Origin: a virus
Taxonomy: Duplodnaviria > Caudoviricetes
IMG/VR virus record: IMGVR_UViG_3300019373_000007
Coordinates: 1 to 64,000 of that record
Strand: one strand, 5' to 3'
DNA: 64,000 bases
Part shown: positions 24,203-57,252 of the stretch, in pieces
How positions within the stretch are numbered: position 1 is the stretch's first letter
How the letters are laid out: each line of letters opens with the position of its first letter
Program-made: the position numbers and the translations under genes
Notes under the pieces: model-generated
What the model was told of the DNA's origin: nothing
The model's input: the letters and a program-made list of their open reading frames with translations, nothing else
Databases searched by the model: none

Positions 24203-24745
24203 ATGTCAGTAAACATTTTCCAAAATAACGCGCTGAAGAAGATTGCGGGAAACTACGCAATTGACAGCAGCTTGAGTGCAACATCTGAAAACGCAGTAAT
24301 GAATAAAGTAGTGACAGCTGCTTTAGGGGCTGTTGGTGTCGGTGTAATCGGCACACAAGCAGAAATTGAAGGGAAGATTCAAAGGGGCGAAATCGCACCT
24401 GGATCCATCGTACAGATCACTGACGACGCTGCTGATACCATCACAGGCCTCCAAGTAACTACATCTGCTGTGCCTGGACAGACTACAGTGGAGGGTGCAT
24501 TATCCACGATAAATACACATTTATCGGGTTTGGATACAGAAGTTGATAGCAAGTTAGACGCAATCAAAGTTTTGTTCACTAATACAACACAAATCAATAT
24601 TGGTGGTGGTCCGGGTTACATCTTCTTTAATATACGTATTTCTCCTACCTATATCATGCAAGTTGAATTTAATTATCAACAAGGAATTTCGTTGAATGTA
24701 AGTACCGATAATGGTGCATCTTGGACTACTTATTGGAGAAAGTAA
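24203..24745 (+). CDS. Short fibre/receptor-binding-like protein 1 with variable C-terminus
   Basis: DSSLSATSENAVMNKVV fibre repeat; INTHLS encoded by site A; stop overlaps site B. Confidence 0.65.
   Translation: MSVNIFQNNALKKIAGNYAIDSSLSATSENAVMNKVVTAALGAVGVGVIGTQAEIEGKIQRGEIAPGSIVQITDDAADTITGLQVTTSAVPGQTTVEGALSTINTHLSGLDTEVDSKLDAIKVLFTNTTQINIGGGPGYIFFNIRISPTYIMQVEFNYQQGISLNVSTDNGASWTTYWRK
24507..24526 (+). repeat. Recombination-like site A (CGATAAA-TACACA-TTTATCG)
   Basis: 7-bp inverted arms, asymmetric 6-bp core; recurs at 25015, 56787 and inverted at 57183. Confidence 0.75.
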
Positions 24746-24751
24746 TCTTTA
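24739..24751 (+). repeat. Recombination-like site B (AAA-GTAATC-TTTA)
   Basis: Same as nt 9-21 and 25436-25448. Confidence 0.65.
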
Positions 24752-24883
24752 CATCGCAGAAGAACATACAATCAGATCAGAGAGTCAGCTGAGCATCGCA
24801 TCGCTCGGCGAGCTTGATCTGAATTTATCCAATTATATCTTTTATATATAATTTTTAAATTTTATCAATAGGAGGAAAAATTC

Positions 24884-25321
24884 ATGTCAACAAAATATTT
24901 CGATGACAATGAACAACTAGTAGATATTGCAGGAAAAGCTGCAATGGATGCACAGTTGAGCACAACATCTACCAACGGTGTGCAGAACAAAATCGTTACA
25001 TCAGCGATAAACGAGATAAATACACAATTAACGACTTCAAATGCAGATAATATTGATGGCAATAATCTTTTGGTTGGATACAAGAAAGGTGATATTAGAG
25101 AACTATTCTTTGCAGATTTATCTCTGTCCATAGGTGAACAGGCGTATGTTGGTAGTCAGTATACACCAAAGAGAACCCTCATGTTTCCTATCGTGTCACT
25201 TGGAATCGGTACAATTACTTGTAGACTTACGACAACTGGTGATATTGAATTGCTAGGTGCAGATGGTTCTATGTTATCCGGCACACATCGATTGTTCGGG
25301 CATGTAATGTATTTGCATTAA
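24884..25321 (+). CDS. Short fibre/receptor-binding-like protein 2 with variable C-terminus
   Basis: DAQLSTTSTNGVQNKIV repeat; INTQLT at site A. Confidence 0.65.
   Translation: MSTKYFDDNEQLVDIAGKAAMDAQLSTTSTNGVQNKIVTSAINEINTQLTTSNADNIDGNNLLVGYKKGDIRELFFADLSLSIGEQAYVGSQYTPKRTLMFPIVSLGIGTITCRLTTTGDIELLGADGSMLSGTHRLFGHVMYLH
25015..25032 (+). repeat. Recombination-like site A (GATAAA-TACACA-ATTAAC)
   Basis: Same left arm, core and codon phase as 24508. Confidence 0.7.
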
Positions 25322-25432
25322 AGTATGGGGTTATTTTATGAAGAAGAATAGAAAATCAAAGTCTTGTATCAACTGTCCTATTCCTAAGAAATCCGATTTA
25401 TGCAAGCAGTGTGTTAATAGGAATTGAAATGA

Positions 25433-25450
25433 ATTAAAGTAATCTTTACA
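25433..25450 (+). repeat. Recombination-like site B (ATTAAA-GTAATC-TTTACA)
   Basis: Matches nt 6-23 in 17 of 18 positions. Confidence 0.7.
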
Positions 25451-25454
25451 GCAT

Positions 25455-25672
25455 TATAGAACGTACCGCCGTAACCTTCTGGGCGGCGGTCTTAATAGAG
25501 AGGTCTTGCTACAGTAGACGATTAAAAATGAAGATTTGGTCGTAGGGCGCGACTAAGTAAAACAAAAGAAAGCCCACTGAGAAGGTCAAGTAGGATTGTG
25601 ACCACCTACCTAACAGAGTACAAAAAGAATCATATTCTTTGACGGGGCAGTGCTACAGCATTGCCCTATTTT
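25455..25672 (+). ncRNA. Putative structured non-coding RNA ending in a terminator
   Basis: ORF-free; several hairpins, possible GGGC/GCCC pseudoknot, final GGGCAGTGCT/AGCATTGCCC stem with T-run. Confidence 0.35.
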
Positions 25673-27695
25673 CTTTGTTACTAACTAAATTGAATCTCAA
25701 CTAAAATCGTTATAGAAGTATACAGACGAGAAGCTGTATGCTTCTTTTATTTTCACACTATTGTAGGAGGGTTGTGAAATGGATTCAAAGAAAGAATTGA
25801 TAGCATCGTGGAGAGCTATTGTACTTCAGTTACATACTTTAGGGTATGATACACTACTACAAGATGAAATCAACGTAGTAGCTACGCAACTGAGAAAAGA
25901 TCTTGGATTAGACCAGGAGGGGCAGAATGAAGCAGTCAGTAGATGATAACGCAAGAAAAGAAGAGCTAGTCAGAGAACTAGCAGAGAATCTATCTGTAGA
26001 GCAGCTAGGAATCGCACTCGCGTTTGGGCGGAACTTAGCGATATACGGAGTTGATGTAACTACAGCATGGAAGACTGCAACTGAACAATCTGCTGCATTA
26101 CAGGCAGCATATCATCGAGGAGTAAGCGACGGCACGTTATTCAGCAGCGAGACATCTGCTGCGAATGCACTGAGAAAAGTCAAACTCGCTAAAACGCGTA
26201 TGAAGGAACAATTTCACGATCCAGACAACGAATTTGATCGAGGTGTTAGGTTTTGCCTAGACATCCTCGACCCTATTATTGAAGGAGGACAGAGGAACTA
26301 TGACTAAACAGGAGTTAGAAGATGCTCTGAAGCATACTCGAGCACAGCACAAAGATGACATAGTAAGCACAGGTGATACTTGCATTTCACTTCTGTGCGA
26401 AGATACTCTACGTGTTCTCAATCGGTGTATTGAAATTCCAGATGACGCTACTTGCTGGCAGGCCATTCAGATCCTGTTTCCATACGTGAAGGTGTCAGAA
26501 ATACATGGAACATTTGACCATGACAAGGTATTAGGGTACCGCATGTGGATAGGTAATAGATTCCACGATTTCGACTTAGATTGGTGGAATTCACCATTTA
26601 GACTCAAGGAGGACAATTAGATATGACATTCGAAATAGGATTCTACGATCATTTATTCTTTCCGCTACCTACAATCTTAATTCAAGGATGGGGCGAGCCT
26701 AAGCAGATTACATTCGTGTGGTTCCATCTATATGTAGGGTTCGCAGAATAACAGATAGGAGATTAACATGGGAGTAATGTACGGAGGGGAGATTGATTGC
26801 ATCCTCGAAAACCTGACACTCAAATCGTTAGATCGCATACTAGATCTAATAGACGAATACATCGATTTAGTAGAGGACATCAAAAAGATGGAGGGCAATG
26901 AGCATGGAGGAGCAAACTAATTAGAATATACAGACTAGCATGGAAGACAAGATGCTAGAATGGGTCAAAGACAAGTGCAGAGAAGTACAGGAACTGTATG
27001 AATTTTACACACAGTATAGATACCAGCTACAGGAGCGTGTGGATAGACTCGACGAAAGCACATTCTTCAACGAAGCTATTCAAGACAGTGTGCAGACTAT
27101 GAATATCTACTATGCGAAGTTTTCACAAGGATACAGAGATGTGTCCCAGGTGTGTCATATCCTAGGAGGACAGTACCTAGAGGTATTTGATGCACATTTC
27201 GAGAAAGGAAAGTACCTATGATAAAGAAGACAATGTACTGTGACCGATGCGGCAAGAAATGCAAGAAGATCCGCAATAACAGAGGAAAACTTCTGTATAC
27301 AGCAGGTCATAATCCGCTTGACCTCTGTCAATCTTGTCATAATGAGCTGAATGCATGGTTCAAGCAAGGCAAGAACAAAGAAGCGACCGGATATGAAGAG
27401 CTGCTGAATGACATGGAAGACAAGATGAAAACATACATCAACGCTGACATAAGGGGAGGATTTCGCGCCGCATACACTATGGTGCAAGAATACATAATGG
27501 GTGCAGGTTCGGAGGAAGAATAGAATGGACTATAAGAAAGCAGAGAAAGTGCTTACTGCCTTAGTCCTTGAACTCGATAAGCAGAAGGACGGCAGTAACA
27601 GTGAGAAAGAGGAAGCGCTAGTGTTTGCTATCTCGCGTATGCGCGAATTGCAAGAGATAGAAAAGTTAGTAAAACGGCCATAGGAGGGCACTGAT

Positions 27696-28225
27696 ATGAG
27701 CAAATACATTATCGAAGTTGATGACAACGCTGTAGACGGCTTATTCAAGGCAAAGGGATTCAATGCTCTTGTATTTGACCAGAATGGTCTTGATAAGTTG
27801 CAGAAGTATGAAGAGCCTGAACCTGTCAGGGAGGAGCAGTCCTGGCCACAAAATGGTGATGATTATTATTTCATAGAATCTAGCGGTTCAATCAGCTGCT
27901 CCACATGGTGCAACGATTGCTGGGACAAGAGCCGCGCACGTACCGATAACTGTTTCCTTACAGAAGAGAAGGCCAAGTTTGCAGTTAATCGGCGGGAGGT
28001 ACTCGCAGAGATGAAAAGTTTGCAGAGCCGTTTGGCATAGAGTGGGACGGCTACGCGCTTCACTATTATATTTACTATAACATTTGCACCAAAGCTGCTG
28101 ACGTAGCTAACTACATATCAGTTCGACACAGTGAGCTTTACTTTAAATCAATGGAGAGAGCATACGATTGCATCAAAGCAGTCGGAGAGGACAGAATCAA
28201 GAAGTATTACTTAGGAGTTGAGTAG
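27696..28225 (+). CDS. Hypothetical phage protein with frameshift near 28015
   Basis: Adding one A in ATGAAAAG continues into KFAEPFGIEWDG...VGEDRIKKYYLGVE. Confidence 0.55.
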
Positions 28226-28391
28226 ATATGAAAAACCAAAAAGATAAAATTCCATATCCTTGTACAAGATGCAAACGTAATTGCCCTTTTGAGATTCGTA
28301 TATTGGTTATAAAGAAATCAGAATGCACAGGAACCCCAATAAATCCAAATGTGTGGTGTAAGTTATTTGAAAGAATGGATGGTAAGTAGAT

Positions 28392-28805
28392 ATGACCAGA
28401 GAAGAAGCAAAGGAAATAATTCGTGCGTTTCGACACATTGATTATTCTAAATTAGATGATGAAGAAAGGGAATTATATGATGGTGCTTTAGATATGGTTA
28501 TCGAAGTCACTAAGCAGGAGCCTTGCGAAGACGCAGTAAGTCGTATCGAAGTAGATAGGCTATGCAACATGTACTTAAGAGTTCCGACAGATCAGCATGT
28601 TGCATTCTATGAGCATTTCGTTGACTTGCCACCTGTAACACCTGCCCGTGAGACAGGAAAGTGGATTGAAGGATCCACAGAACAAGGCGCATTGGGAATA
28701 AGATATACAGAGAAAACTTGTAGTAAATGTGGCTGGTCACATAGTTTAATTATTCCACAGAACTATTGTCCGAAATGCGGAACAGAAATGAGAGGATCCA
28801 AGTAG
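28392..28805 (+). CDS. Modular small protein with C-terminal Zn ribbon
   Basis: [25 protein letters not shown]. Confidence 0.65.
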
Positions 28806-28807
28806 CC

Positions 28808-29335
28808 ATGACACGAGAAGAAGCAAATCAGATACTACACTGCCCAGATACCGTAGGTGGTGTATACAGTGAGAAGTATGGGCAAGCACTTGATATCGCA
28901 ATGAAAGCCTTAGAAGAAGAAACGGTATCAAGAGAGGTTTACGAGAGTGAATATCTTGCAAGAAAGCAAGCTGAATATGAGTTATGGAAGATTAAAGAGC
29001 AAGCGCCTTGTGAAGATGCAGTAAGCCGAAAAGAAGCTACTGAAAAAATGGAGGAGTGGGCTGATGGTTTCCGAGGCGGTGGATACTTCGATGGGGATGC
29101 TGTTGCAGATGTTATTTGTGCATGTGCTGACATAGTGAACGGATTGAAGTCTGTAACACCTACACGCAAGAAAGGGAAATGGATTCTTAATGAAAAACAA
29201 GGCGTGCGGGCGGTTGGATACGCTACTTATCATTGTTCAGAATGTAATCGTGAGATAACTAGTAAATATCACGGAAAAATAACTCTCTTGAAAGAATATC
29301 CATATTGTCATTGCGGAGCAGAAATGGAGTGGTGA
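28808..29335 (+). CDS. Paralogous modular protein with C-terminal Zn ribbon
   Basis: [26 protein letters not shown]. Confidence 0.65.
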
Positions 29336-29337
29336 AG

Positions 29338-29640
29338 ATGATAGCAAATAAAGCCATGGAGATGCCAAATGGCTGTATCTCAGTCACAACTCGTCCTCTT
29401 TATTCAGACGAAGTAGTCTACAATTATTGTCCTTTCTATAACACATGCGACCATGCACAGTTCAGTGAGAGTGACATTAGGCCTAGCGATTGTCCTCTAG
29501 TAGAAATCGTTACTTGTTCTGAATGCAATAATTGGGAGGGCAATAACTCCGGGACAGGTTATTGTTCAGTTAAGAAGAAATACAGACGAGCTTATGATTA
29601 CTGTTCAGACGCTAAGAGGAAAGTAGATGGTAGCAATTAA
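29338..29640 (+). CDS. Cys-rich small protein (CPLVEI family)
   Basis: Paralogue of 29627-29938 and 35673-35960. Confidence 0.6.
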   Translation: MIANKAMEMPNGCISVTTRPLYSDEVVYNYCPFYNTCDHAQFSESDIRPSDCPLVEIVTCSECNNWEGNNSGTGYCSVKKKYRRAYDYCSDAKRKVDGSN

Positions 29641-29938
29641 AGATGAAAAGATGCCTGACGGTTGTCAGCATTGCATGTACTTCCGAAAGTACCTATTTGG
29701 TAGCGGACTTGATTACAGTTATTCGTGTCCTCGTGGTGCAACACAGTTTCCGATGCCCTGGATCCGACAGATGGAAGAAAGAGCAAGTGATTGCCCATTA
29801 GTAGAAATCATCACATGTAAGAATTGCAACCATTGGAAGTTCAATGAGAATGCTTCTTTTATGTGCGGCTATTGTAATCATCTTGAAACTGAAACAGGCC
29901 AGTATTTCTACTGCGGAGACGCAGAGAGGAGACAATAA
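29627..29938 (+). CDS. Cys-rich small protein (CPLVEI family)
   Basis: MP..C..C...CPLVEI.TC..C..W..C..YC. Confidence 0.6.
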   Translation: MVAIKDEKMPDGCQHCMYFRKYLFGSGLDYSYSCPRGATQFPMPWIRQMEERASDCPLVEIITCKNCNHWKFNENASFMCGYCNHLETETGQYFYCGDAERRQ

Positions 29939-30665
29939 ATAATGCATCAAGAAGTAACTACAGTAGTAGAGGAAGCTAAAGTGACTCATAAATTCTTTTG
30001 TGACGAGTGCGGATGTTTTATTGACGAGTCTGAAGAATATGAAGATGGATGGTATCCGTGTGATTGTTGTCGTGAATGGAAAATCTTCATTGATGGACGA
30101 TGGTACTATAAGAAAGCAGAATTATGCGATGACTGCACTAATAAGGTAACAAATAATATTATCAATGCATTAGAAAAACTAGGTTTTACAGATGAGCTGG
30201 AGGACTGATTATGAACGTGTCTAAAAATATCTTACACGCACTTGTTGATTTGTGCGGATTATTGAATGAGCAAGATTCAGATGGTTGTACTTTAAACATC
30301 AGTGTACCTGACACTGATATAGAGCTAGAAGTTGAAGTATCGTACCGCTTTAACAAGAATGTAAAATCTTCTCGAGGTAAGGAGGACTAGACTGTGAAGC
30401 TAGTAATTGATATATCAGATGATGCATACGAAACCCTAAAGATTTTCGGAAAAGGAAATGTCGGATACTATCATGAAGTTATTCTAGATGGTAAGCCGCT
30501 TCCAACACTAACAGACTCAGAACAGCGATTATTTCTTTCCGCAATGAGCCGAGAAAAAGATGTATGTAAAAACATCGATGAAGATAAGGTACCTGATAAT
30601 GATGTAAAGATGTTAGTCCCTTTGTGTCAAAACATTGAAAGAAAGGTGAAGGAGGTGTTGTTCTA

Positions 30666-30953
30666 ATGCAGATTGTAATTAACATACCGCAAGGAAGATA
30701 TGAGGATATATTAAGTGGAAAAGAGTTTAGAGTATATCAATGTGATATTAGAGACGTATTGAAACACGGCTCACCACTTCCGAAAGGGCACGGAAGGCTG
30801 ATTGATGCGGATAAATTAGTACCTGATTGCCAAGAAGATTTCGTCTACTATGATGACGATGAGCATAATGAATTTACTGCTGTAGGAATTGCACAAATAG
30901 AATGTGCAGACACAGTCGTAGAAGCAGATAAGGAGGGTGAGGAATGCAGATAG
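30666..30953 (+). CDS. Small protein (LPKGHGRLIDAD family)
   Basis: Tandem paralogue of 30944-31222. Confidence 0.65.
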   Translation: MQIVINIPQGRYEDILSGKEFRVYQCDIRDVLKHGSPLPKGHGRLIDADKLVPDCQEDFVYYDDDEHNEFTAVGIAQIECADTVVEADKEGEECR

Positions 30954-31222
30954 TAATTGAGTTAGATGAATATGTATTAGAACATTGCAAAAGACATGTT
31001 AGAGAACGTTATGCAAATAACATAGAAGAAGCAATAGCGAAAGGCACAGTACTTCCTAAAGGACATGGTAGATTGATCGATGCCGATTCGCTAAGAGCAG
31101 GATACAATATTGACCTTGAAGGCAACTTAGTAGGCTACAGGTATATAACAAAACGTGATATAGACAACGCACCAACAATCCTAGAGGCAGATAAGGAGAG
31201 ACGGCGAGATGAAGCAAATTAA
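30944..31222 (+). CDS. Small protein (LPKGHGRLIDAD family)
   Basis: MQIVI..LPKGHGRLIDAD..EADKE. Confidence 0.65.
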   Translation: MQIVIELDEYVLEHCKRHVRERYANNIEEAIAKGTVLPKGHGRLIDADSLRAGYNIDLEGNLVGYRYITKRDIDNAPTILEADKERRRDEAN

Positions 31223-33602
31223 AGTTAATCCATCAAATAGACGTTACTATTCTGTGGACTTTATGACGGGATTTGAATGTGGAACAAAAGCGCAACTTGA
31301 AGCTAACAAGAACGTGATTGACCAGATCAAAAAGGCTAGAAATGAAGTTGCCAATTATTCAGATTTTCACAGAGAGCATCTCTACAAGACAAATCCTAAT
31401 TATGATGTGGAGCAAGGGCAGTATTCAGCGTACAAGAAGTGTTTGCAGATTATTGACGATTTGATTGCACAAGTGGGGGAGTAAACATGGCAGGGTACAC
31501 CGATAGAAAACGGTACATGAAAGATAAATACAATTGTGATCTGATGATGATTGAAGGTGTTGAGCTCGTTCCGCTGTATCAGATAATAGATAGACTAGAG
31601 AAATCAGTTTCACTAGACTCAATTAAACAAGCTAGAGAGGAAGTAGCCAAAGGATGGTACACTCGCCCCGCAAACAGATATGAAGAGGGCAAGAAAAATA
31701 GGTCATTGGAATGTATGCACATTCTTGATTGGATCATTGCAGAGCTGGAGGGATAACATGGTAGAGTATAGAGATAAATCTGACGTAGACAGATCATTGC
31801 AGCTAGGATGGGGAGACTCTAACAGTCTTGTAATTGCAAATCATAGCATATCACCCATCGCGCCTGATGTTCTAGTTCCGCTAAGCAGAATCAAGTCCTT
31901 GCGTGAAGATGCTGTAAAATACAGAGACGATGAGTCGAATGATTTTATCGATGTCGAGGTGGGCGCAATAAATGGAGTTATTGCTATGATTGACAATCTA
32001 ATTGCAGAGGTAGAAGAGGTCTATGACAAGCAGAGCAAAGAAGAGAAAATGTAAGAATACTGCATACGATAGAGGCGGCGAGAAGGGAAGGATCCACTAT
32101 CTCAAAGGATACGCAATGTATCACAAGAAGGACAGAGTAGCAATGAGAAAAGAAGCTAAGATTGCAGAGACGGAGGGGTAACATGGCGGAATATATAGAT
32201 AGAACGCAAATACCTTATGCAAAAATAACTTGTTTTGATAAGGGTTCATTAACTACAAGGGAGATGGTTGAAAGTGTGTCTATCGCAGATGTAATCGAAC
32301 GTGCGGAGGTACTAGACCAAATCAAGGAGATCAGGGAGAGCATGGAGGGATTTAGTAATAGCTTTAAAAGCATAGACAACTATTAGTTAGTGAGGGTTGT
32401 TGGTTACTGTATATCGCTTATAGACAAGCTGATTGTAGAAGTGCAGGGACAGGATGAAAGTAGAAATTGAAATAACGGAGCATGAATGGAATTATCTCAA
32501 TAAGCTTGTCGAGAATGGTGACATATTAGGACATTATAAGAGGCTGATACTCAACGGAACACCAATGAGTAATAAAGGCCCGTGCATTCATGGTGATCTA
32601 TGCAGAGAGTATTGGAACAAATTTCATGTAATATACTCAACCCAATGCCCTAAATGCGATAGATATGAACCTAAGTTACAGAAAGTGAGGGGACACGATG
32701 AAAGTGTTGATTGAGATACCAGAAGACCACAAGAGAGTAATAGATAATCTTGTAAATGACGGCAAGGGATATTTGTTACCACAAGAAGTAGAAACAAGAT
32801 TAGCAAAAGCAGTGAAAATCGGCACTGTTATCCCTGACAATGCTACTGATGGGGATGTGGTTGAAAAACTTTTCGGCAAAGATGTTTATTGTACTTTAAT
32901 CCGTATGATGTATTCATCTTGTTGTGAGAAACTAAAGAAATGGTAGAACGCACCATATAGAAGAGAGGGAGAGTAGATGAATTTTATCTCAATACACAAC
33001 GTAGCCGACAATGATTGGGTCTTGATAAATATTGACCAAATAGCAGTGATTTGCGAAAGAACGATTTCTATTAAGATGAGCGATGGTTCAGTAATTCGTA
33101 CGGATCCTTATAGCCTAAAGAAGATATCGGAACGAATTCGCGTAGGACTCATCTATGAGGATTAGGGAGGAACAATGACACTGATTGAATACATCGACTA
33201 CCAGAAGGCAATTCTAGATGAGGAATTAACAAAAGTTACAGAGCAAGACGTTATCATCATGATCAACGCTCAGCTTTACTTACTAGAGAAGATCAAGGAA
33301 GCCGTTGAGTCTGATGTAATTGAAACAATAGATTAGACGTTAGGAAGGAAGGGACAATGGTCAATGAGAATTTCCTTACGCTACGTGTAGGGTCAAAAGT
33401 ATTCGTGTATGGAGCCGGTGCATTAGAGGAACACACAATTACAGCGTTCCATATAGCGAATTCTAACGGAGAGTTGAAATGCTACGTAGAATCAGAAGTA
33501 GGTCCGAAGAAGTGGTCTAGATCGTGCTCCCTCGATACATTCATTCACGGAATAGAGGTTGCACAAGATATGAGGATATCTGATATCAGGAGGTAAGGTA
33601 TC

Positions 33603-41548: not shown

Positions 41549-41598
41549 CTCCCACCAAAATTCTGCAAATGCACGTCTATGTAGTCCTGCGAAAGTTT

Positions 41599-41896
41599 CA
41601 GTGAAATTTACACTGAAAATAATTTTTGCAAAAATTTATCGTCAAATCACACTGAGATCACATCAACAACTTGATGTCCAATGGCTACATCTAGTCACCC
41701 ATCAGACAAGATCTCGTGGTTCAACACCCTAAAATTTTCAGTGTAAATTACACTGTTTTATGAATTTCAGTGTAAATTACACTGTGGAAATCCGGTTCAA
41801 ACCTCCATGAGTTTATCACTTTAAAGTGAAATTGGACTAAAGTGAACAGTGTAAAACACACTGAAAAATTTTTCAGTTTCAGTGAAATTTACACTG
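41599..41896. repeat. Five CAGTG-N7-CACTG palindromes, candidate origin or operator array
   Basis: Copies at 41599, 41739, 41768, 41847, 41880 in AT-rich intergenic DNA upstream of the replication operon. Confidence 0.75.
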
Positions 41897-42381
41897 AAAT
41901 CCCCCGAAAAGTGCTCGCGTACGCGCGCAGTGAGTATACTCACAGTATACTTGTAGAATACTCGTCGATAGACGCTTCGCGATTATAACATTACCACAAT
42001 TAAGTTTTTAAAGAAATTAAATTAAGCGCGCGCACGCGCAAGCCTCTTCCTCTCCTCTTTTTGAAAATTCGTGAAACTGACTCTGAGAGTGTTCTGCTCT
42101 GATGCTATCGCATGATTGAACACATGCCGAAAATTGATGATGCCGAAAACGGGAGTTGATAGCTTCGCAAGAATTTCTGAAAAGACCCCTAGGGGGAAGT
42201 TTTTGAAAAATCGCTCAAGCATGCTTGTGCTATGCGTACGCATGTGTATGCAGCCGAATTCGCACATGTGTAGGGCATATGTGAAACAATGCGAAAGGCG
42301 TCGATAGCGTATTCAAAACATAGGCATTGATATGTTTTATGGGGTATCATCGTCTAGTTGAAAAATTTCTTAAAACGGGTC

Positions 42382-47113: not shown

Positions 47114-47200
47114 GAATCCATAGCTCAAGCAGAGCAGCCGAGGTCTTTTTCTAGTTCCTCAACTCCCGGCAAGACGGAGGTTCAAGTCCTCCTGGATTCA
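47114..47200 (+). tRNA. tRNA-like element with enlarged anticodon arm
   Basis: Acceptor GAATCCA/TGGATTC, D arm GCTC/GAGC, T arm GGAGG-TTCAAGT-CCTCC; about 24 nt in place of a 7-nt loop. Confidence 0.65.
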
Positions 47201-49468: not shown

Positions 49469-49484
49469 ATTTGGAGAAACAGTA

Positions 49485-50141
49485 ATGAAAAGATACGTCA
49501 AATCGACAAATAGGACAATATCGCTAGCTGATATATTATCAAAGATCGATTACTTTGTATTAGTTGATAGTTGTGATAACTTGAACTTGTCTGTTATAAA
49601 CGCACCAGATGAAGTTGATGATGATTCGGAATACTATGCTACTCTTCCTGACAGCCGCCTTGCTGAGCTCAGTGATAATGAGCTCCATTCAATCAATGAC
49701 CCTGAGATACTTGATCGTCTTGTACACTTGTGCAAGGAGCGACTTTCGTCTGATCAGCTTGCGATCTATAGGGAAGAAGCTAAAAAGAAAGTTCCACTAG
49801 ACGATGCAGCTAAAGTTGATCTGCTTCGCATGTTTAGTCAATGCAACAAAGTTTTCATAGAAAATCGTCGTAAAAATAATGATTTTAGGGCTACTTATGA
49901 ACTGACTGATGACGACATATTGGCTATCTTACATAATCTGAAGAAAAGCGACTTCGATTCCAGAACAAAAAGCATCAACTACGGGCACTTAGGTAATAAC
50001 TTAGTAATCATGCATCCGAACATTCTTATCCCACAGAAGGACATCATAGTAGGAGCTAACTTGTATATCAAAATTGATATTGATGAATCTACACATTCCG
50101 GTGTAGCGTTCATCTCAATACACCCTAGACAATTCGACTAG
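49485..50141 (+). CDS. MqsR/RelE-fold RNase toxin-like domain with N-terminal extension
   Basis: RRKN..F...ILHNLKKSDF...LYIKI...ISIH pattern; MKRYVKS start. Confidence 0.6.
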   Translation: MKRYVKSTNRTISLADILSKIDYFVLVDSCDNLNLSVINAPDEVDDDSEYYATLPDSRLAELSDNELHSINDPEILDRLVHLCKERLSSDQLAIYREEAKKKVPLDDAAKVDLLRMFSQCNKVFIENRRKNNDFRATYELTDDDILAILHNLKKSDFDSRTKSINYGHLGNNLVIMHPNILIPQKDIIVGANLYIKIDIDESTHSGVAFISIHPRQFD

Positions 50142-50209
50142 ACGTTACAACCTAAAATAACAACAGAAGAAGACTCATGCAGATGAAATGCCAGAATGAA
50201 GTCTTCACA

Positions 50210-50359
50210 CCGCAGTTCGTATTTTACAAGCCTTCACGAAATCCTGCGGTATATAAATCAAACACTATTGATCTTAAGGCCTTCATATGTAACAAAATCG
50301 AGTAAGATCTTGCTAGTGTGAAGGGACGCACAGTTTCTAAGCATTAGCAAGGTCTTTTT
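50210..50359 (+). promoter_or_regulatory. preQ1-I-like aptamer with transcription terminator
   Basis: CCGCAG-UUCG...AUC-CUGCGG, A-rich tail, loop GCCUU pairs AAGGC; terminator 50304-50359; upstream of queF. Confidence 0.65.
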
Positions 50360-50374
50360 ATATTGCGGTAATTC

Positions 50375-50442
50375 CCGGTGTTCGTATTCATTCCTTGACG
50401 AAATCCACCGGCTTTACAAAATAAAACTATATTTCAAGGAGG
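50375..50442 (+). promoter_or_regulatory. Second preQ1-I-like aptamer sequestering the queF RBS
   Basis: CCGGUG-UUCG...AUC-CACCGG, A-rich tail; loop UCCUUGA pairs UCAAGGA overlapping AGGAGG. Confidence 0.7.
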
Positions 50443-50451
50443 TTCACAAAC

Positions 50452-50961
50452 ATGAGTGAACAAAGAGAACAGGATTTATCCGAAGTAACATTATTAGGTA
50501 ATCAGAACACTAAGTACAAGTATGATTACGACCCATCTATCTTAGAGAAATTCGAGCGCAAGTTTGATGGGTCTGTTAAGGATGAGCAGATTGTCAGCTT
50601 GGATTGCTTTGAGTTTGCATCTAGATGTCCGAAGACCGGGCAGCCGGATTTCGCAACCATCCATATTTCTTACATTCCGAATAAATATATGGTAGAATCT
50701 AAGTCATTGAAGCTCTATCTCTTTAGTTTCCAACAGCATGGAGACTTTCATGAATCTTGCGTTCATATGATCATGCAGGATTTAATAGATCTGCTGGATC
50801 CATGCTATCTGGAAGTTTATGGTGACTTCAATAGCCGCGGCGGTATCTCAATCTTGCCATTCAGTGTATACGCTGATGAGGATCACATGGACATCAAGAA
50901 TGCTCGTCAGCTTACTATGATGCAGTATAGTGTAGAGCATAGACCGAGAACAGGCAGATAA
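50452..50961 (+). CDS. queF: preQ0 reductase QueF (type I)
   Basis: [28 protein letters not shown]. Confidence 0.95.
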
Positions 50962-50976
50962 TGAGGAAAGCTTCGC

Positions 50977-51030
50977 ATGCAAGAAGAATGGGGATCCGTT
51001 GTCGGATATGATGGAATGTACGAGAACTGA
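50977..51030 (+). pseudogene. NUMOD4 remnant of a deleted HNH endonuclease
   Basis: MQEEWGSVVGYDGMYEN* matches the EEW..V.GY.G.YE NUMOD4 start. Confidence 0.55.
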
Positions 51031-51062
51031 GATATCGTTATAGTATTCAAGGAGGACTAATC

Positions 51063-51560
51063 ATGAAAATTTATGTAAGAGCAATGTCCTTGCCGAAAGC
51101 AGAAGCAATCAAGCGTGCGGGATACTATGCTGACGATATAATGGAGCATGTGATCAAGATAGTTGTTTATCATGACATTCGACATAAACAGATAGATCAC
51201 TGGATCGGAGAAATTTCAGGATGGCTGAAGTTTGTTGATGGATTGACTGTGAAGCCGTCTAATAGGCATCTCAAGCCTGCGATGATTCGTGATACTACTT
51301 TCGGTCCTATGGGAGATCACTTACAAGACTATGTAGGTTCGTTAGAGATGTTCCAAACAGCTAATAAGCGCGGGAAGTTCAACTACGAAGATAAGGAATC
51401 TTACCCATACAGAGAACCTGACGCACAGACCGCAAGCGATCTCATGAACATATGTTCTCATCTGATTGGAGTAGCCATTCCGATGCTCTGCGAAAAGAAA
51501 GACTACACAAGAGAAGATTATGTGCAAGTACTACAAGATGTATTCAGAGCATACATCTAA
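51063..51560 (+). CDS. DUF29-like helical protein
   Basis: IMEHVIKI...HWIGEI motif; MKIYVRA start. Confidence 0.45.
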   Translation: MKIYVRAMSLPKAEAIKRAGYYADDIMEHVIKIVVYHDIRHKQIDHWIGEISGWLKFVDGLTVKPSNRHLKPAMIRDTTFGPMGDHLQDYVGSLEMFQTANKRGKFNYEDKESYPYREPDAQTASDLMNICSHLIGVAIPMLCEKKDYTREDYVQVLQDVFRAYI

Positions 51561-51648
51561 TAACATTTGACACTACGATAGAATTAGAAACATGACTACA
51601 AGCCTGTTTCTATGCAGGCTTGTTTTATTTGTAAAGGAGGAAAATGCC

Positions 51649-52413
51649 ATGAAAAAGGCATTGATTTTAAATTCAGGCGGCATGGATTCTACAACTTTAG
51701 TAGGCATGGCTGTAGATAAGTACGGAGCAGAAAATATCATCACCGCCTCACTGTATTACGGACAGAAGCATGATAAGGAATTGAAGTGTGCACAGGCAGT
51801 AGCTGAGTACTACGGAGTTCGTCACATTGAAGAAGATATTTCATCTGTTATGAAGTATGCAGGAGAGGTTTGCTCACTTGTAAAGGGGTCGAAGGATGAG
51901 ATCATCGACAAGAGCTACGCAGACCAGATTGCAGAGAATGGAGAAGGCCGAGTAAGCACATATGTTCCATTCCGTAACGGGTTGTTCTTATCTATTGCAG
52001 CTGCTTATGCAGATAGCTTGTTCCCAGGACAGGAATGTGAAATCTGGTATGGAGCTCATGCAGATGATGCTGCAGGCCAGGCTTATGCAGATTGCTCTGA
52101 GGAATTCGCCTCAGCTATGGATCAGGCTATCAATATCGGGACATATGGAAACATTCATGTAGTGAGACCTCTCATCAGCATGAATAAGTCCGAAGTATGT
52201 GCCGAAGGCATCAAGTTAGGCGTTCCATATGAACTTACATGGAGCTGCTATCGCGGAGGAGACAAAGCGTGCGGAACGCGATGTGCAACTTGTTTAGACA
52301 GAATTGAAGCATTTCGAGCTAACGGTGTAATTGATCCTATTGAATACGATGCTGAAATAGATTGGTCCGGATGTAAGGAGATAAATTATAGGAAAGGAAT
52401 TTATCATGATTAA
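51649..52413 (+). CDS. queC: 7-cyano-7-deazaguanine synthase
   Basis: SGGMDS, YGQKH..E, TYVPFRN, TWSCY, CG..CATC..R. Confidence 0.96.
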   Translation: MKKALILNSGGMDSTTLVGMAVDKYGAENIITASLYYGQKHDKELKCAQAVAEYYGVRHIEEDISSVMKYAGEVCSLVKGSKDEIIDKSYADQIAENGEGRVSTYVPFRNGLFLSIAAAYADSLFPGQECEIWYGAHADDAAGQAYADCSEEFASAMDQAINIGTYGNIHVVRPLISMNKSEVCAEGIKLGVPYELTWSCYRGGDKACGTRCATCLDRIEAFRANGVIDPIEYDAEIDWSGCKEINYRKGIYHD

Positions 52414-53482
52414 TTCTGAGCTATCTGCCATCTCAGCTGAAGGAGAGCAATGGAGACAGATTGAAGATTTCTCTAGATACTGGATATCTGATTTAGGACG
52501 AGTTTATGACATTAAGTTGCATAAGATAGCTCGGACAGAAGTTGAATATGATGGATACATCTTAGTTAGTATGAGGAATGATAAGAACGAACCTAAAACT
52601 AAGAGAATTCATCGTCTTGTTGCCGAAGCATTTCTGCCTGATTGGAATCCTAACTGGCCCTGGACAGTTAATCACATAAATGGAAAGAAAGACGATAATA
52701 GTCTTGGCAATCTAGAGATGCTTACTACCAGCGACAACAGTAGGCACTACCAAACTGCAGAATGCTTTGCGGAATCTAGAAAATCTGTGCGTGCTGCTAC
52801 ATCTAAGAAGATGAAAGAAAAATGTAGCGACCCTAACTACGTTGCTGAGATGTCAAAGAGAATGAAAGCAGTATGGAGCGACCCAGCGAATCGAGAGATG
52901 TATGTACAGTGCCTCTATCAACGGCATTCTGACCTAAATGAGAGGAAACAGATTTCAGAGAGGATGAAAGAAGTGTGCTCAGATCCGAACTATCGAAAAG
53001 GAATGTCAGATCGTCAAAAGGAAAATTGGAATCGACCTGAGTATCGACAGGCAATAACATCTAAAAATCAAGACCGCATGTGGGTTCATGGCAGTCAGTC
53101 AGAGCGATGGATACATTCTCATGAGTTGGCTTCGTATTTGGAACAAGGCTACTTAGAAGGGAGATTGCCGAACACCATGAAACCGACTACAGCAGGCAAG
53201 ATAAGGATATCAAGGGGCAATGAGGGTAAGTTCGTCAATCCTTCTGAATTGGACAACTATCTCAGTTCTGGATGGAGATTGGGAAAATCAAAGAGACAGA
53301 TGGTACAATGTGTAGAGACGGGAGAGGTGTTCTCTAGCGTTGAAGAGTGTGTTTCTGCATTTGGTGCTACAGTAGATCTCATTCGAGCTCGATGCAAAGG
53401 GACAGCTACTACTTTCAGAAAGCTCAAGGAATTTACTTTCCGTTTCTATGAAGGCGAAGATCCATTCGCTGATATGCGATAA
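52406..53482 (+). CDS. NUMOD4-HNH homing endonuclease
   Basis: EQWRQI..YWISDLGRV, IHRLVA..F, VNHINGKKDDN..NLE, repeated helical motifs. Confidence 0.9.
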   Translation: MINSELSAISAEGEQWRQIEDFSRYWISDLGRVYDIKLHKIARTEVEYDGYILVSMRNDKNEPKTKRIHRLVAEAFLPDWNPNWPWTVNHINGKKDDNSLGNLEMLTTSDNSRHYQTAECFAESRKSVRAATSKKMKEKCSDPNYVAEMSKRMKAVWSDPANREMYVQCLYQRHSDLNERKQISERMKEVCSDPNYRKGMSDRQKENWNRPEYRQAITSKNQDRMWVHGSQSERWIHSHELASYLEQGYLEGRLPNTMKPTTAGKIRISRGNEGKFVNPSELDNYLSSGWRLGKSKRQMVQCVETGEVFSSVEECVSAFGATVDLIRARCKGTATTFRKLKEFTFRFYEGEDPFADMR

Positions 53483-53545
53483 TAATTAACTAATAACCGG
53501 GCGAGCAGGTTCATGCTCGCCTGTACACTATAAGGAGGTAGAAAT

Positions 53546-53983
53546 ATGTATACAGTGCAAACACGCGTCACATTTGAAGCAGCGCACCGCCTGTATGACG
53601 TAGATACGTATTCAAAAGAGTGCTCTGACTCTGTTCACGGGCATTCTTACGCAGTTACCATCGTTGTGGGTCGTGAGGATCTCAACGATGCAGGAATGGT
53701 GATTGACTTCAAGTTACTGAAGAAGGTAATCAAAGAAGTGATTGAAGACCAGTACGATCATTCACTCATCTTGCGAACATGCGATCCGCTACTAGCTGCA
53801 TTTGCTAAGTTAGCTCCAGAGCAGAAGATGAATGTTACTACTGAAAGCCCAACAGCAGAGTGGATGGCTGAGTCATTTGCAAGCTTATTGAGCTGTCGAT
53901 TCGCTTTGGAGGATGACGAGTTGCGTGTGCAGTCAGTTTCCGTTCAGGAAACGGAGAACAACATCGCCACATGGCGAGCATAA
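53546..53983 (+). CDS. queD: 6-carboxytetrahydropterin synthase
   Basis: FEAAHRL, C..VHGHSY, GMVIDF, DH, PTAE, ET. Confidence 0.93.
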   Translation: MYTVQTRVTFEAAHRLYDVDTYSKECSDSVHGHSYAVTIVVGREDLNDAGMVIDFKLLKKVIKEVIEDQYDHSLILRTCDPLLAAFAKLAPEQKMNVTTESPTAEWMAESFASLLSCRFALEDDELRVQSVSVQETENNIATWRA

Positions 53984-54001
53984 TTGAAAGGTGTATGTAG
54001 T

Positions 54002-54475
54002 ATGGTAAGCAAGAATGAAATCATGAAATTAGGTGTAGATCGCGCATTCGAGACGATGTCTCAGGGAATCGGAGGGCCATTCGGTGCAGTCATTGTGAAG
54101 GACGGAGAGGTCATCTCTGTAGCTTCTAATTCTGTGCTAGGTGATCATGACCCGACAGCTCACGCAGAGGTCAACGCTATTAGAGAAGCATGCAAGAAAT
54201 TAGGTACACATGACCTGACAGGATGTGAGATCTTTGCCTCAGGAGCCCCGTGTCCGATGTGTCAATCAGCCATCATCTGGGCAAACATCAAAAAGGTGTA
54301 TACTTCCGGAACAGTAACAGACGCTGCTGCTATCGGGTTCCGAGATGATTACATCTACAAGTTCATTGAAGGAGGATGCTTAGATTCTTCTGTATTAGAG
54401 ACGGAGCAGCTGGATCGGACACCTGCAGTGGAGTTATACACTGCTTATCATGAAATGAATAAAGAAATGTATTAA
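54002..54475 (+). CDS. Guanine/nucleoside deaminase (GuaD-like, CDA fold)
   Basis: GGPFGA, DPTAHAE, PCPMC, AIIWA, GFRD. Confidence 0.88.
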   Translation: MVSKNEIMKLGVDRAFETMSQGIGGPFGAVIVKDGEVISVASNSVLGDHDPTAHAEVNAIREACKKLGTHDLTGCEIFASGAPCPMCQSAIIWANIKKVYTSGTVTDAAAIGFRDDYIYKFIEGGCLDSSVLETEQLDRTPAVELYTAYHEMNKEMY

Positions 54476-54495
54476 GGAAGGAGAAGCAACATCGT

Positions 54496-54879
54496 ATGAA
54501 AGAATATGTTACGTGGGATGAAGTCAGAGATTTCATCTACGGAAAAGTAGCTCCGATGCATCTAGACGAGGCATTTACTGGAGTTTACGGCTTGCCTAGA
54601 GGAGGTTTGTGCTTAGCAGTAATGATATCTCATGCGCTTAACATTCCGATGCTAGCTGCACCAGCTCCGGGATGCTTGATTGTAGACGACATATGTGATT
54701 CCGGAGAATCTCTTGTGCACTATTACAAGAATTCTTCAGGTGAGCGTCAGAATTACCGTATCGCTACTCTTTACTACAAGGAGAACGCGCTTGGAGTAGT
54801 CCCTGACCTGTATGATTTCGTCAAACGTGATAACTGGGTTGTTTTTCCGTGGGAATGCGATCCAATTTCACTAATTTAA
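54496..54879 (+). CDS. Type I phosphoribosyltransferase (Gpt-like)
   Basis: PRGG, LIVDDICDSGES PRPP motif, WVVFPWE. Confidence 0.88.
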   Translation: MKEYVTWDEVRDFIYGKVAPMHLDEAFTGVYGLPRGGLCLAVMISHALNIPMLAAPAPGCLIVDDICDSGESLVHYYKNSSGERQNYRIATLYYKENALGVVPDLYDFVKRDNWVVFPWECDPISLI

Positions 54880-54889
54880 GGAGGATTCT

Positions 54890-55558
54890 ATGAAAATCAA
54901 CGAGATTTTTTGCTCGCTCAACGGAGAAAGCGCCAGAACAGGGAAGAGAACCGTCTTCGTTCGTACATTCGGATGTAATCTGCGCTGTAGCTACTGTGAT
55001 ACAATGTATGCAGTTGAGGGCAACGACTATACTGACATGACTATCGAGGAGATCAAGGAGAAAGTCGACAGTTTTCACTGTAATCGTGTTACCCTCACAG
55101 GAGGAGAGCCTATGATCCAGAAGGATATGATGGATCTCATCTACCTACTCGACGGGGATTGCTGCAGGCTCTACGACATAGAGATAGAAACTAACGGCGC
55201 AGTTGATTTGACTGAGCTTGTTAAAGCTAGAAGGGATAGGGAGATCAGCGATTCACTCCTCATCACTATGGACTGGAAATGCCCTACAAGCGGAATGTTA
55301 GATGAGATGGTTGAGAATAACTTGTCTCTGCTATCTGACACAGACGTAGTGAAATATGTTGTTGGATCCATAGCTGACTTAGACGAAGCAATGCGAGTGC
55401 ATTCACTTACTCGAGCTCAACTCTACTTGAGCCCTGTATTCGGCAAGATTGAGCCAAAAGAAATCGCAGAGTACTTAGTAAAGGGTGAAATCAACGACGT
55501 TACACTACAAATCCAGCAGCATAAGGTGATTTATCCGCCAGACATGAGAGGGGTATAA
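54890..55558 (+). CDS. queE: 7-carboxy-7-deazaguanine synthase (radical SAM)
   Basis: [32 protein letters not shown]. Confidence 0.95.
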
Positions 55559-55563
55559 GAACT

Positions 55564-56148
55564 ATGGGATACAAGAAAATAGATACAGATAAGATTGAAC
55601 AGTTGACACGCGAATTCCTGATTGCGTTAGGGGATGACCCGGATAGAGAAGGATTGAAGAAAACTCCTCACCGCGTTGCGAAGATGTGCAATGAGATCTT
55701 TGAGGGAATGACTTATACAAACGCAGAAATTGGCACTATGTTCAATACTTGCTTCGAAGATGTAGAGACTGGCGACCTAGTAGTAGAGAGCAACATTCCG
55801 ATACATTCATTTTGTGAACATCATCTCATGCTCATGTACGATATGTCTGTAGCTATCGGATACCTGCCTAAGGGACGTGTAATCGGTCTCAGCAAGCTAG
55901 CTAGGATTGCTGATATGGTAGGCAAGCGCCTTCAACTACAGGAACGCATTGGATCCGACATTGCTGATATCTTACAAGACGTCCTAGGCACTGATGACAT
56001 CATTGTAGTTATCGAAGGCAAACATGGATGCATGACAGCACGTGGAATCAAAGCTAGAGAAGCAGTTACTAGAACAGCTACTTTGCGTGGCAAGTTCAAG
56101 TATGATTCTGACCTTCGTTCTGAATTCTACTCACTGATTGAGAATTAG
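55564..56148 (+). CDS. folE: GTP cyclohydrolase I
   Basis: TPHRVA, SFCEHH, GLSKLAR, LQLQER, HGCM..RG. Confidence 0.96.
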
Positions 56149-56202
56149 CATCGCACCTTACATAACGTCAAGTGAAAACAAGCAACCCTGAGGAGGTTTA
56201 TT

Positions 56203-56496
56203 ATGAAGCGATACGTAAGAAGCTCATTCTTAGATGATGACGATGAATTTGATGATATCGACACATGGGACTACAGCAGAGAAGAAGTCGTTCCTGCAAT
56301 AATGAAAGCACTTGTAGTGAAGAAACCAATCGCAGATATCATCTACGAGTGGTATGATGCAGAAGATGCATGGGAAGACCATGAATCACTTGAGGATTTC
56401 ATTTCTTATCTTAAAGATGACATCTACGACATGGCTGATGCATGCGATGATGAAGCACTTCGTGATAAGGTACTTGTAGCCCTTGCAGGAAAGTAA
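56203..56496 (+). CDS. Small acidic protein with MKRYVRSS start
   Basis: Own ACCTT motif, RBS and terminator. Confidence 0.6.
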   Translation: MKRYVRSSFLDDDDEFDDIDTWDYSREEVVPAIMKALVVKKPIADIIYEWYDAEDAWEDHESLEDFISYLKDDIYDMADACDDEALRDKVLVALAGK

Positions 56497-56667
56497 ATCG
56501 TCATCGGAGCAACTAGCTTGACTACACACAAGTCTAATCCATCAAGGCCGCTGAATTTAGCGGCCTTTCTCTATGATCTACAACACCTTATATTTATTCA
56601 GAGATACCTAGCGAGCTAGTTTGCTAGGATGTAATAAATCAGACAGTAAAGAAAAGGAGAATAGATA

Positions 56668-57129
56668 ATGGGAAAACTTATTTATGACGGAGTCGTTTAC
56701 GCAGGCGGCGTTGTAGTAGATTCAGCACTCAGCACAACAAGTACCAACCCGGTGCAGAATAAAGTAGTAGCAGAAGCAGTTAATACGATAAATACACATT
56801 TATCTAATAAAGCGGATAAGGTTTGGACGATTGCAGGCGGTACCGGAACCGTTGGCGGAGCCGTAACTGTGCCGACAACTGGAGTTAGCGAACTTCTGAT
56901 TGCTGGTGCACTTAACATTAACGGACAGGCGGAAATAAGCGGTTCGGTAATCATTCCTATGCATTTTCTAGCACAAGATAGAAATTTCCGCATACAGCTT
57001 GGTTACCATTCGGAAATTGGACAAATGCAGGTTTCTTATATTAAGAACAATGGCGCATTCTATATCACTGATGAGTATTATTCCATCGGCACTATTGCCG
57101 CACGTGCTATGGTTGTGTACTATCGTTAA
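56668..57129 (+). CDS. Short fibre/receptor-binding-like protein 3 with variable C-terminus
   Basis: DSALSTTSTNPVQNKVV repeat; INTHLS at site A. Confidence 0.65.
   Translation: MGKLIYDGVVYAGGVVVDSALSTTSTNPVQNKVVAEAVNTINTHLSNKADKVWTIAGGTGTVGGAVTVPTTGVSELLIAGALNINGQAEISGSVIIPMHFLAQDRNFRIQLGYHSEIGQMQVSYIKNNGAFYITDEYYSIGTIAARAMVVYYR
56787..56804 (+). repeat. Recombination-like site A (GATAAA-TACACA-TTTATC)
   Basis: Identical 18 bp to 24508-24525. Confidence 0.78.
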
Positions 57130-57182
57130 TCAGTTAATCGCCCATATAGATAGAGATTTCCACGCCAGTTTGTACCGTATCA

Positions 57183-57200
57183 TCTAATTGTGTATTTTAC
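57183..57200 (-). repeat. Inverted site A (GTAAAA-TACACA-ATTAGA on minus strand)
   Basis: Same core; opens minus-strand frame NTQLDDTVQTGVEISIYMGD*. Confidence 0.6.
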
Positions 57201-57212
57201 CGACAGGCAGAA

Positions 57213-57252
57213 AGTAAATTAAAGGTAATCTTTATACAATTAAGTAATCTTG
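57213..57252 (+). repeat. Site B plus partial second copy
   Basis: Near-identical to nt 1-30; second GTAATC core at 57244. Confidence 0.72.

Follow-up and report, generated by a model that had tools for sequence, protein, structure and literature searches.

Switching of fibre tips by DNA inversion is textbook knowledge for phages Mu and P1, and the enzymes Gin (Mu), Cin (P1) and Min (p15B) are serine invertases that use 26-bp sites and are encoded adjacent to their switch. Rci of R64 is a tyrosine recombinase whose sites are conserved on one arm and in the spacer, and it varies the C-terminus of the pilus adhesin PilV. Engineered recombinase-mediated cassette exchange (RMCE) places the cassette to be exchanged between two heterospecific lox or FRT sites, which are alike in their arms but differ in their cores. 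Here we describe short repeated sites in the fibre-like genes of a phage represented by IMG/VR record IMGVR_UViG_3300019373_000007 (G000). The window analysed is the first 64 kb of this single 134,514-bp virus record, which is given as linear in IMG/VR and is about 89% complete according to CheckV. Three fibre-like genes in the window (P1, P2 and P3) carry in frame a 13-bp sequence, site A (AAATACACAWTTA), at which they switch to different C-termini (tips), and each variable end is followed by a second element, site B (AAAGTAATCTTTA). Site A is probably, judging from its sequence and arrangement, the crossover site of an inversion system of the Rin or shufflon kind, common to dispersed fibre genes and largely decayed in the window.

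One tyrosine-recombinase fibre system has been predicted before, the Rin shufflon of Bifidobacterium prophages. According to Mavrich et al. 2018 (PMC6109161), a Xer-like tyrosine invertase is associated there with an asymmetric site of 11 bp that precedes every variable tip gene. These authors also report a second inverted locus, which is simpler, has an 8-bp site and no flanking recombinase, and is called unprecedented in phages. According to PMC9881135, tail-fibre genes are enriched among the targets of predicted programmed inversions in bacteria. For T4-type phages, short conserved sequences (PeSL or conserved motifs) are reported to flank variable modules and to mark where swaps between related phages break (PMC2839356, PMC4122927, PMC3157838).

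The present system resembles Rin in the joining of one constant N-terminal module of a receptor-binding protein to any of several variable C-terminal cassettes, in the short asymmetric site before each cassette (11 bp in Rin versus 13 bp here), in the gut setting, and in the candidate enzyme, a Xer-like tyrosine recombinase without an arm-binding domain. Rin is one cluster with rin adjoining, whereas here one site sits in the NTHL linker of at least four separate genes tens of kb apart, with the recombinase 8-47 kb off. Tips are common here to different N-terminal genes, the outer element B has no described counterpart there, and activity of the present system is predicted.

With Gin, Cin and Min the shared features are inversion between inverted sites as the means of switching a C-terminal host-range tip, and silent cassettes that are promoterless and convergent. 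Unlike in those systems, neither G000 (89% complete) nor the related contig G001 (16% complete), both incomplete records, gave any match to the serine recombinase family (Resolvase, PF00239). The R64 shufflon likewise combines a tyrosine recombinase with C-terminal variation of an adhesin, but it is plasmid-borne and clustered with rci adjacent, and the R64 site sequence is unrelated to A. Site B behaves like the module-boundary elements of the T4-type phages. Those elements are reported to be promoter/terminator sequences or protein motifs for homologous recombination, whereas B is neither promoter-like nor terminator-like and A is codon-invariant and is also found inverted and silent. The differences from Rin, the nearest described system, are the in-frame site common to dispersed genes, the common pool of tips and the B element. 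No description of a dispersed arrangement of one crossover site was found in the full-text literature searched, which is weak evidence of absence.

Site A and the C-terminal tips

P1, P2 and P3 share the motif D..LS.TS.N.V.NK.V followed by INT(H/Q)L. The initial annotation, which had described three fibre-like genes switching their C-terminus at site A in one codon phase, was borne out for all three open reading frames (ORFs). The N-terminal motif is widespread in phage fibre proteins: 461 of 583 IMG/VR pattern matches encode a relative, frequently with several copies per ORF. Because the motif is such a common repeated element of phage fibre proteins, the label 'fibre-like' is a fair one for P1-P3. 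Searches of Pfam and PHROGs assigned no family to any of the three, and since neither these nor the fold search gave a match, 'receptor-binding' is used here as a prediction for their tips. A metagenome scan with the whole of P3 returned at least 80 loci, all of which matched the widespread N-terminal motif alone, with no close relative among the matches listed. Comparison of G+C content inside and outside the cassettes, suggested in the initial annotation, gave a step in P1 (0.471 in the N-terminal part and 0.347 in the tip), but none between N-terminal part and tip in P2 or P3.

The strictly conserved unit of site A is the 13-mer, of which there are four copies in the whole 134,514-bp contig. 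Three are on the plus strand, in frame in P1, P2 and P3; the fourth lies on the minus strand at 57185-57197. A scan of the whole contig recovered all the copies of A and B listed initially, and this fourth, inverted A had been missed. With up to two mismatches, GATAAATACACAWTTA has four matches against 0.05 expected, and four were reached in none of 100 shuffles. The stretch shared by the P1 and P3 loci, first put at 18 bp, is identical over 20 bp (ACGATAAATACACATTTATC, at 24506 and 56785; repeat family D9). In an alignment of six A sites, 12 positions plus a W are invariant, including the AAA(A)T stretch that is untranslated in the silent copies.

It could be proposed that no dedicated enzyme is involved, A being a required linker of the fibre fold and the tips being swapped by general or phage homologous recombination at short conserved stretches, in the manner suggested for T-even adhesin motifs and PeSL regulatory cassettes. 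The extremely wide distribution and repetition of the N-terminal motif would agree with this, as would the frequency of mosaicism at domain borders in fibres and the lack of a recombinase linked to the sites. However, across four genes (P1, P2, P3 and a 265-amino-acid (aa) gene of G001) same-residue codons inside A are identical in 27 of 27 pairwise comparisons, versus 28 of 64 in the equally conserved LS.TS.N.V.NK.V motif a few codons upstream; the free synonymous variation in INTHL that the initial annotation had thought would speak against the site is not seen. Furthermore, A is kept in silent copies, including the stretch ahead of the translated part, with a stop codon preceding it, its copies are arranged as inverted pairs around convergent cassettes, and 13 bp is very short for homologous exchange. 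We regard swapping by homologous recombination alone as unlikely.

The inverted arrangement is evident at the P3 locus. The minus-strand A lies 56 nt past the P3 stop, and the minus strand there reads TAA-NTQLDDTVQTGVEISIYMGD-stop, a silent cassette of which a 20-codon remnant is present in the window. This remnant is the tail of the tip of the 265-aa protein from G001 (tblastn, 100% over 18 residues at the protein's end). G001 is the sole IMG/VR relative found with the P3 tip alone, the locus being at the end of the 24,331-nt contig. Its 265-aa fibre-like gene is complete, is located downstream of portal, tail-sheath and virion-structural genes, and carries A in frame (INTHL). A pair of inverted A sites in G001, at 23477 (plus) and 24181 (minus), brackets two convergent tips, and the silent one of these is a full P3-type (C3) cassette of 113 residues, without N-terminus, promoterless, in frame behind the inverted A and blocked by a stop codon (TAA-NTHL). 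Inverted copies of A bracketing a variable segment are present both in the window, at the P3 locus, and in G001. No inverted partner of A was found at the P1 and P2 loci.

Comparison of G001 with G000 by blastn gave three high-scoring segment pairs (HSPs) in all. The first pairs the inter-A segments in reversed orientation (G001 23793-24193 with 57190-56790, 84.7% over 405 nt), the second pairs the flank from the minus-strand A to B in direct orientation (G001 24181-24238 with 57185-57243, 88%), and the third pairs the last 123 nt of G001 (24209-24331) with positions 1-123 of the window at 100%. Because the first HSP is reversed and the second direct, and the two overlap exactly on the A site, the inter-A segment is flipped relative to the common outer flank in the two phages. 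A flip of this kind, as read from the alignment, is the signature of a fibre switch of the Gin/Cin/Min/Rin type. The initial annotation had set the system apart from a clustered inversion shufflon, a distinction that was not upheld, since the only rearrangement seen is inversion between inverted A copies. Homologues of the G001 portal and sheath genes were not detected in G000 with family controls that were weak, and the G001-like sequence is therefore probably a missing part of the genome of this phage type.

The 31 proteins compared came from homologue searches in which P1, P2, P3 and the 265-aa protein served as queries, and are drawn from this phage, G001 and metagenomes. The junction (I/L)(N/D)T(H/Q/R/T)L is found in 25 of the 31; the remaining six are a fragment (P0006) and five proteins that have the N-terminal motif alone in common (P0013-16 and P0020). 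By clustering at a threshold that we chose, the 25 junction proteins fall into 9 N-terminal and 17 C-terminal types, combined in 25 different pairs. Seven tips are found on the P1-type N-terminus, four on the P2-type, six on the P3-type and three on the 265-aa type, and four C-terminal types occur on two to six N-terminal types, with the P3 tip, C3, on six. Relatives carry the P1 N-terminus with six other tips, and the P1 tip is also present on an unrelated 259-aa protein. The P2 N-terminus, 94-96% identical over its first third, carries two other tips in P0018 and P0019, and the P3 N-terminus is identical through INT (residues 1-43) in P0007-P0009, which have three other tips. One identical tip is found on the P2 N-terminus (P0019) and a P1-type N-terminus (P0026), and another is shared by P0007, which has the P3 N-terminus, and P0029, which has that of the 265-aa protein.

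All 25 mosaics, as well as the blastn comparison of G001 and G000, have their left breakpoint at A. The fourth junction residue tracks the type of tip and not the N-terminus, which locates the exchange within the 9-bp AAATACACA. Exchange of tips between fibre genes at A, as first proposed, is thus seen as an evolutionary pattern, and movement of tips between distant fibre genes at this site is, as such a pattern, well supported by the mosaics. The shared pool comprises at least 17 tips on at least nine N-termini across gut metagenomes. Because of the 25 mosaics, the invariant codons and the conservation at the untranslated silent heads, the comparisons support site A as a genuine DNA-level junction for the exchange of C-terminal tips between different fibre-like genes.

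The sites could also be fossils only, left over from an ancestral duplication of a fibre gene with its 3' flank and without present function. Three of the four copies of A in the window are direct, the silent cassette is a stub, and the copy number of B is within the repeat level of this genome, all of which would be in keeping with such an origin. Against it are the 25 different pairs of N- and C-terminal types among near-identical modules from many samples, the identical tips on different N-termini (P0019/P0026 and P0007/P0029), and assembly graphs that branch at the sites in three samples. A purely fossil origin appears very improbable to us.

Several searches with parts of site A gave matches that were rejected. 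The 18-mer GATAAATACACATTTATC has a sole IMG/VR match (L081), a chance match in a different frame of an unrelated gene, and the 15-mer TTAAAGTAATCTTTA has at least 117 single matches in IMG/VR and is uninformative. The silent-head 19-mer matched five IMG/VR loci, of which G001 alone is real. A search of genome contigs with GGTAAAATACACAWTTA returned at least 120 loci. Neither a second A nor a B nor a fibre gene was present at any of those listed, and the one examined individually (L383) was a chance match. Genome contigs searched with the P3 tip gave zero matches.

Site B and the outer boundary of the cassettes

Site B is exact at 9, 24739 and 25436, and the copy at 57221-57234 has one extra G; its position after each variable end and the additional base at the third locus are as the initial annotation had them. 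No copy was found in the 64-134 kb part of G000. Every cassette is flanked by A and B (P1 24511/24739; P2 25018/25436; P3 56790/57221), and between A and B in P3 and in G001 lie the inverted A and a second cassette. The copy number of B alone is not significant: with up to two mismatches AAAGTAATCTTTA has five matches versus 2.6 expected, a count reached in 11 of 100 shuffles, and the genome has 27 canonical 13-mers with at least three copies versus about one in Markov simulations. The position of B is non-random, being 0 to 115 nt past each cassette stop and always on the plus strand. Similarity around B extends longer than its core (repeat families D6 and D14), and B2 and B3 form a direct repeat around the whole P2 module (31 nt, 77% identical; D14).

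The right flank of site B (AAAGTAATCTT...) differs among at least seven contexts, of which G000 provides four; the others are an alternative flank in sequencing runs X1 and X5, positions 2-12 of G001, and the end of a 39.9-kb contig (G002), whose terminus has the same flank plus B. Wherever the left flank is known (B1 by way of G001, B4, and the X1/X5 flank), B is located about 24-27 nt outside an inverted A. B was never found in inverted orientation, and consensus scans found no promoter or terminator at it. B is a real conserved outer (3') boundary of the cassette region. The fourth B reported at nt 1-30 does exist (exact at 9) and stands without a fibre gene in this contig; by comparison with G001, B1 would be the outer flank of a further fibre locus that is absent from the contig.

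The graph evidence consists of Logan contigs from run X1, the probable source, and from two other runs, in which expression, exact frequencies and rare variants are unreadable. The graph branches at sites of the A/B region in all three samples. In X1 a 36-nt unitig (57189-57224, depth 119), which starts at the core TGTGTA, is a shared hub that is entered from three left sequences, namely the G000 form (depth 21.8), a 10.9-kb contig (72.7) and a 674-nt contig (22.4), and that exits into two right flanks. The 674-nt contig carries on its reverse strand another NTHL-headed cassette and is also found in run X5. From 57190 onwards, a 14,088-nt X1 contig whose depth (31.2) matches that of the phage follows the G001 arrangement, and a 77,320-nt X1 contig that starts at 57195 would reach precisely to 134,514. 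Three contigs terminate in B or its flank (the start of G000, the start of G001 and the end of G002). Assemblies of this phage group thus seem to break at A/B elements, a practical warning that fibre loci may be lost from them. As a separate observation, the G000 contig (134,503-134,514) and the 77,320-nt X1 contig both have GGTAAGTACACA as their very last bases, a sequence similar to the silent heads CGGTAAAATACACA.

The direct repeats B2 and B3 around the P2 module and the three contigs terminating in B or its flank would fit B being a site of recombination or a module boundary. The initial annotation had gone further and proposed that A and B are heterospecific sites of one tyrosine recombinase, a double crossover moving a tip between loci or co-infecting genomes. 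Both are 13-mers of the form AAA-N6-TTTA, B terminates each cassette region, and its different right flanks and the B2/B3 repeat would agree with such an exchange. The P3 locus and the 265-aa locus of G001 have the block 56790-57243 in common; their similarity stops at A to the left and, to the right, 9 nt beyond B. Both the N-terminus ahead of this A-to-B block and its right-hand context differ between G000 and G001, the one case of this kind at the DNA level. Contigs of run X3 may be added, in one of which the 18 nt preceding the P2 site A are joined to sequence placed on the P3 site A, and in another of which B4 is continued by the right flank of B3. They hint at a P3-type module at the P2 locus, but the loose ends may partly be the P2 locus itself and we do not lean on them.

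The other expectations of a two-site exchange do not hold as well. Neither a B x B product nor a circle bounded by B was observed, and no recombinase is linked to A or B. The core of B is not constant in length, and the extra base in B4 (AAAGGTAATCTTTA) would, were the core a strand-exchange spacer, prevent recombination with the remaining copies. Right breakpoints vary with context, flanks diverging after TAATCTT, after TAATCTTTA or after TATACAATTAA, with a spread of up to 11 nt, and not at a fixed position in the core. Moreover, the A-to-B block that has moved holds the inverted A and two cassettes and so corresponds to an entire inversion module rather than to one tip. The initial two-site proposal has partial support as an evolutionary pattern but not as a mechanism, and a double crossover at A and B is in our estimation improbable. 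Similarly, a natural counterpart of RMCE run by the phage's Xer-like recombinase, in which A-B tip modules would be cut and pasted between genes and co-infecting genomes and inverted A pairs would also flip tips, is doubtful; the arms here are 3-4 bp only, unlike those of the engineered sites, and there is no evidence of B being recombined. The coordinates of the elements are collected in Table 1.

Table 1. Fibre-like genes, A and B elements, and candidate recombinase in the window
Feature	Positions	Strand	Description
Xer-like tyrosine recombinase	8470-9504	+	344 aa; PF00589 E 7.9e-29, PF02899 (SAM-like) E 3.6e-8
P1	24203-24745	+	180 aa: N-terminal module, site A, tip cassette C1
P2	24884-25321	+	145 aa: N-terminal module, site A, tip cassette C2
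P3	56668-57129	+	153 aa: N-terminal module, site A, tip cassette C3
Site A copy 1 (AAATACACATTTA)	24511-24523	+	read in frame as NTHL
Site A copy 2 (AAATACACAATTA)	25018-25030	+	read in frame as NTQL
Site A copy 3	56790-56802	+	left end of segment between inverted copies
Site A copy 4 (AAATACACAATTA on minus strand)	57185-57197	-	inverted; right end of segment between inverted copies
Segment between inverted A copies	56790-57197		opposite orientation in G001 relative to B flank
Truncated silent cassette (NTQLDDTVQTGVEISIYMGD, then stop)	57134-57196	-	closed upstream by TAA stop
B1	1-30 (core 9-21)	+	with flank; in G001, outer flank of the inversion locus of the 265-aa gene
B2	24739-24751	+	overlaps P1 stop codon
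B3	25436-25448	+	115 nt past P2 stop
Conserved outer flank	57198-57251	+	B4 (AAAGGTAATCTTTA) at 57221-57234; second GTAATCTT at 57244-57251

The candidate recombinase and the proposed switch

The free-standing recombinase that had been noted at 8470-9504 is a tyrosine recombinase by PF00589, and both of its Pfam matches (PF00589 and PF02899) are above the cut-offs. Its best NCBIfam matches, XerA, XerD and XerC, all score far under their equivalog cut-offs. The G000 contig encodes no other recombinase, and this enzyme is the sole candidate invertase, although unlinked to the sites. In G002 a gene for a 328-aa tyrosine recombinase begins 110 nt beyond the B flank and is followed by a 1269-aa fibre-like ORF with the N-terminal motif.

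In the inversion system that we favour, inversion at A would join one or another promoterless C-terminal tip cassette to the constant N-terminal module of a fibre. The same site is found, unusually, in frame as NT(H/Q)L in at least four different small fibre-like genes dispersed over one phage genome of about 150 kb, the four counted being P1, P2 and P3 in the window and the 265-aa gene beside the tail sheath in G001. With the site common to all of these genes, the tips would form one pool moving between genes over evolutionary time. In the window the P3 locus alone has kept an inverted partner (57185-57197), and as its silent cassette is reduced to 20 codons the P3 switch would be either decayed or of an ON/truncated kind only; P1 and P2 would be fixed fusions. 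P1-P3 would be virion fibres with receptor-binding tips, the exchange would most likely be catalysed by a tyrosine recombinase such as that at 8470-9504, and inversion may still be ongoing today.

A number of observations weigh against this proposal. Concerning the enzyme, no dedicated invertase gene adjoins the locus in G000, and distances of 8.4 kb and 47 kb separate the recombinase at 8470-9504 from B1 and P3, respectively. The initial suggestion that this enzyme acts on the sites found no backing: nothing links it to A or B, and within 10 kb of its two viral relatives (35% identity), which are in small elements, there is no A, B or fibre motif. Aligned over its full length, it shows only 28% identity with the G002 enzyme, and it could equally be an integrase or dimer resolvase; the true invertase may be located in the missing sequence. 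G002 for its part has no A site in its 39.9 kb (31% complete), and its 19-mer match is perhaps partly due to chance, since the second match of the same scan (L291) clearly is.

Concerning the sites, a strictly conserved unit of 13 bp with arms of 3-4 bp is short for a tyrosine recombinase, and in the window, with three of four A copies direct, the sole inverted pair guards a 20-codon stub. The opposite orientations were seen between G000 and G001 and not within one sample, in contigs and not raw reads. Identity between the two phages in the flipped segment is only 85%, and the flip may be old. A flipped P3 state was not found among the Logan contigs, which drop rare variants and are therefore uninformative either way. 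Finally, the structure model of P3 is weak (pLDDT 59.6), and a fold search with the tip gave no PDB match at E <= 0.001.

Were the exchange driven by an enzyme, this would constitute a distributed, in-trans system of host-range diversification in a large gut phage. The 13-bp site and its recombinase would then also be a compact natural pair, possibly of use as a tool.

The phage genome and neighbouring features

Runs containing G000 DNA are faeces and gut metagenomes, and the INPHARED phage collection gave no match to G000. The ORFs are strongly biased in strand (193 of 219 on the plus strand in a greedy ORF map), the record encodes a NAD-ligase, and its tail genes are outside the 64-kb window. 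The upstream neighbour gene of the P1 locus, at 22078-23052, has no relatives in IMG/VR.

Near the P2 locus, a 29-codon ORF with two CxxC pairs, read by eye, is found on the plus strand between the P2 stop and B3 (25339-25428). Downstream of B3 is a 457-nt non-coding gap that contains, on the plus strand, a 6A RNA (Rfam RF02925, 25532-25582; 63.4 bits, gathering score 41.2). Two hairpins resembling terminators (25644-25667 and 25714-25745) come after it. One tRNA gene is located on the plus strand at 47114-47200 (Rfam, 46.4 bits).

Several repeats unrelated to A were also noted. A large paralogue family with the common 5' end ATGAAACGAGTAATCAAAGC (MKRVIKAS...) is found at 3600 and 60709 in the window and at 83-91 kb outside it, and is the source of most of the repeated 13-mers in the genome. 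A tandem repeat at 13595-13855 has a period of 15 nt and 14 copies and is rich in AAG/GAA codons, with a minus-strand ORF there in the greedy ORF map. Direct and inverted copies of CAGTGAAATTTACACTGAAA form an iteron-like cluster in an ORF-poor region at 41594-41913, and this motif is also found at about 105009, outside the window; the cluster may be an origin or an operator array. Just beyond the window, ORF 64867-66876 of G000 was judged by eye to be a family A DNA polymerase-like fragment with an intein-like insert.

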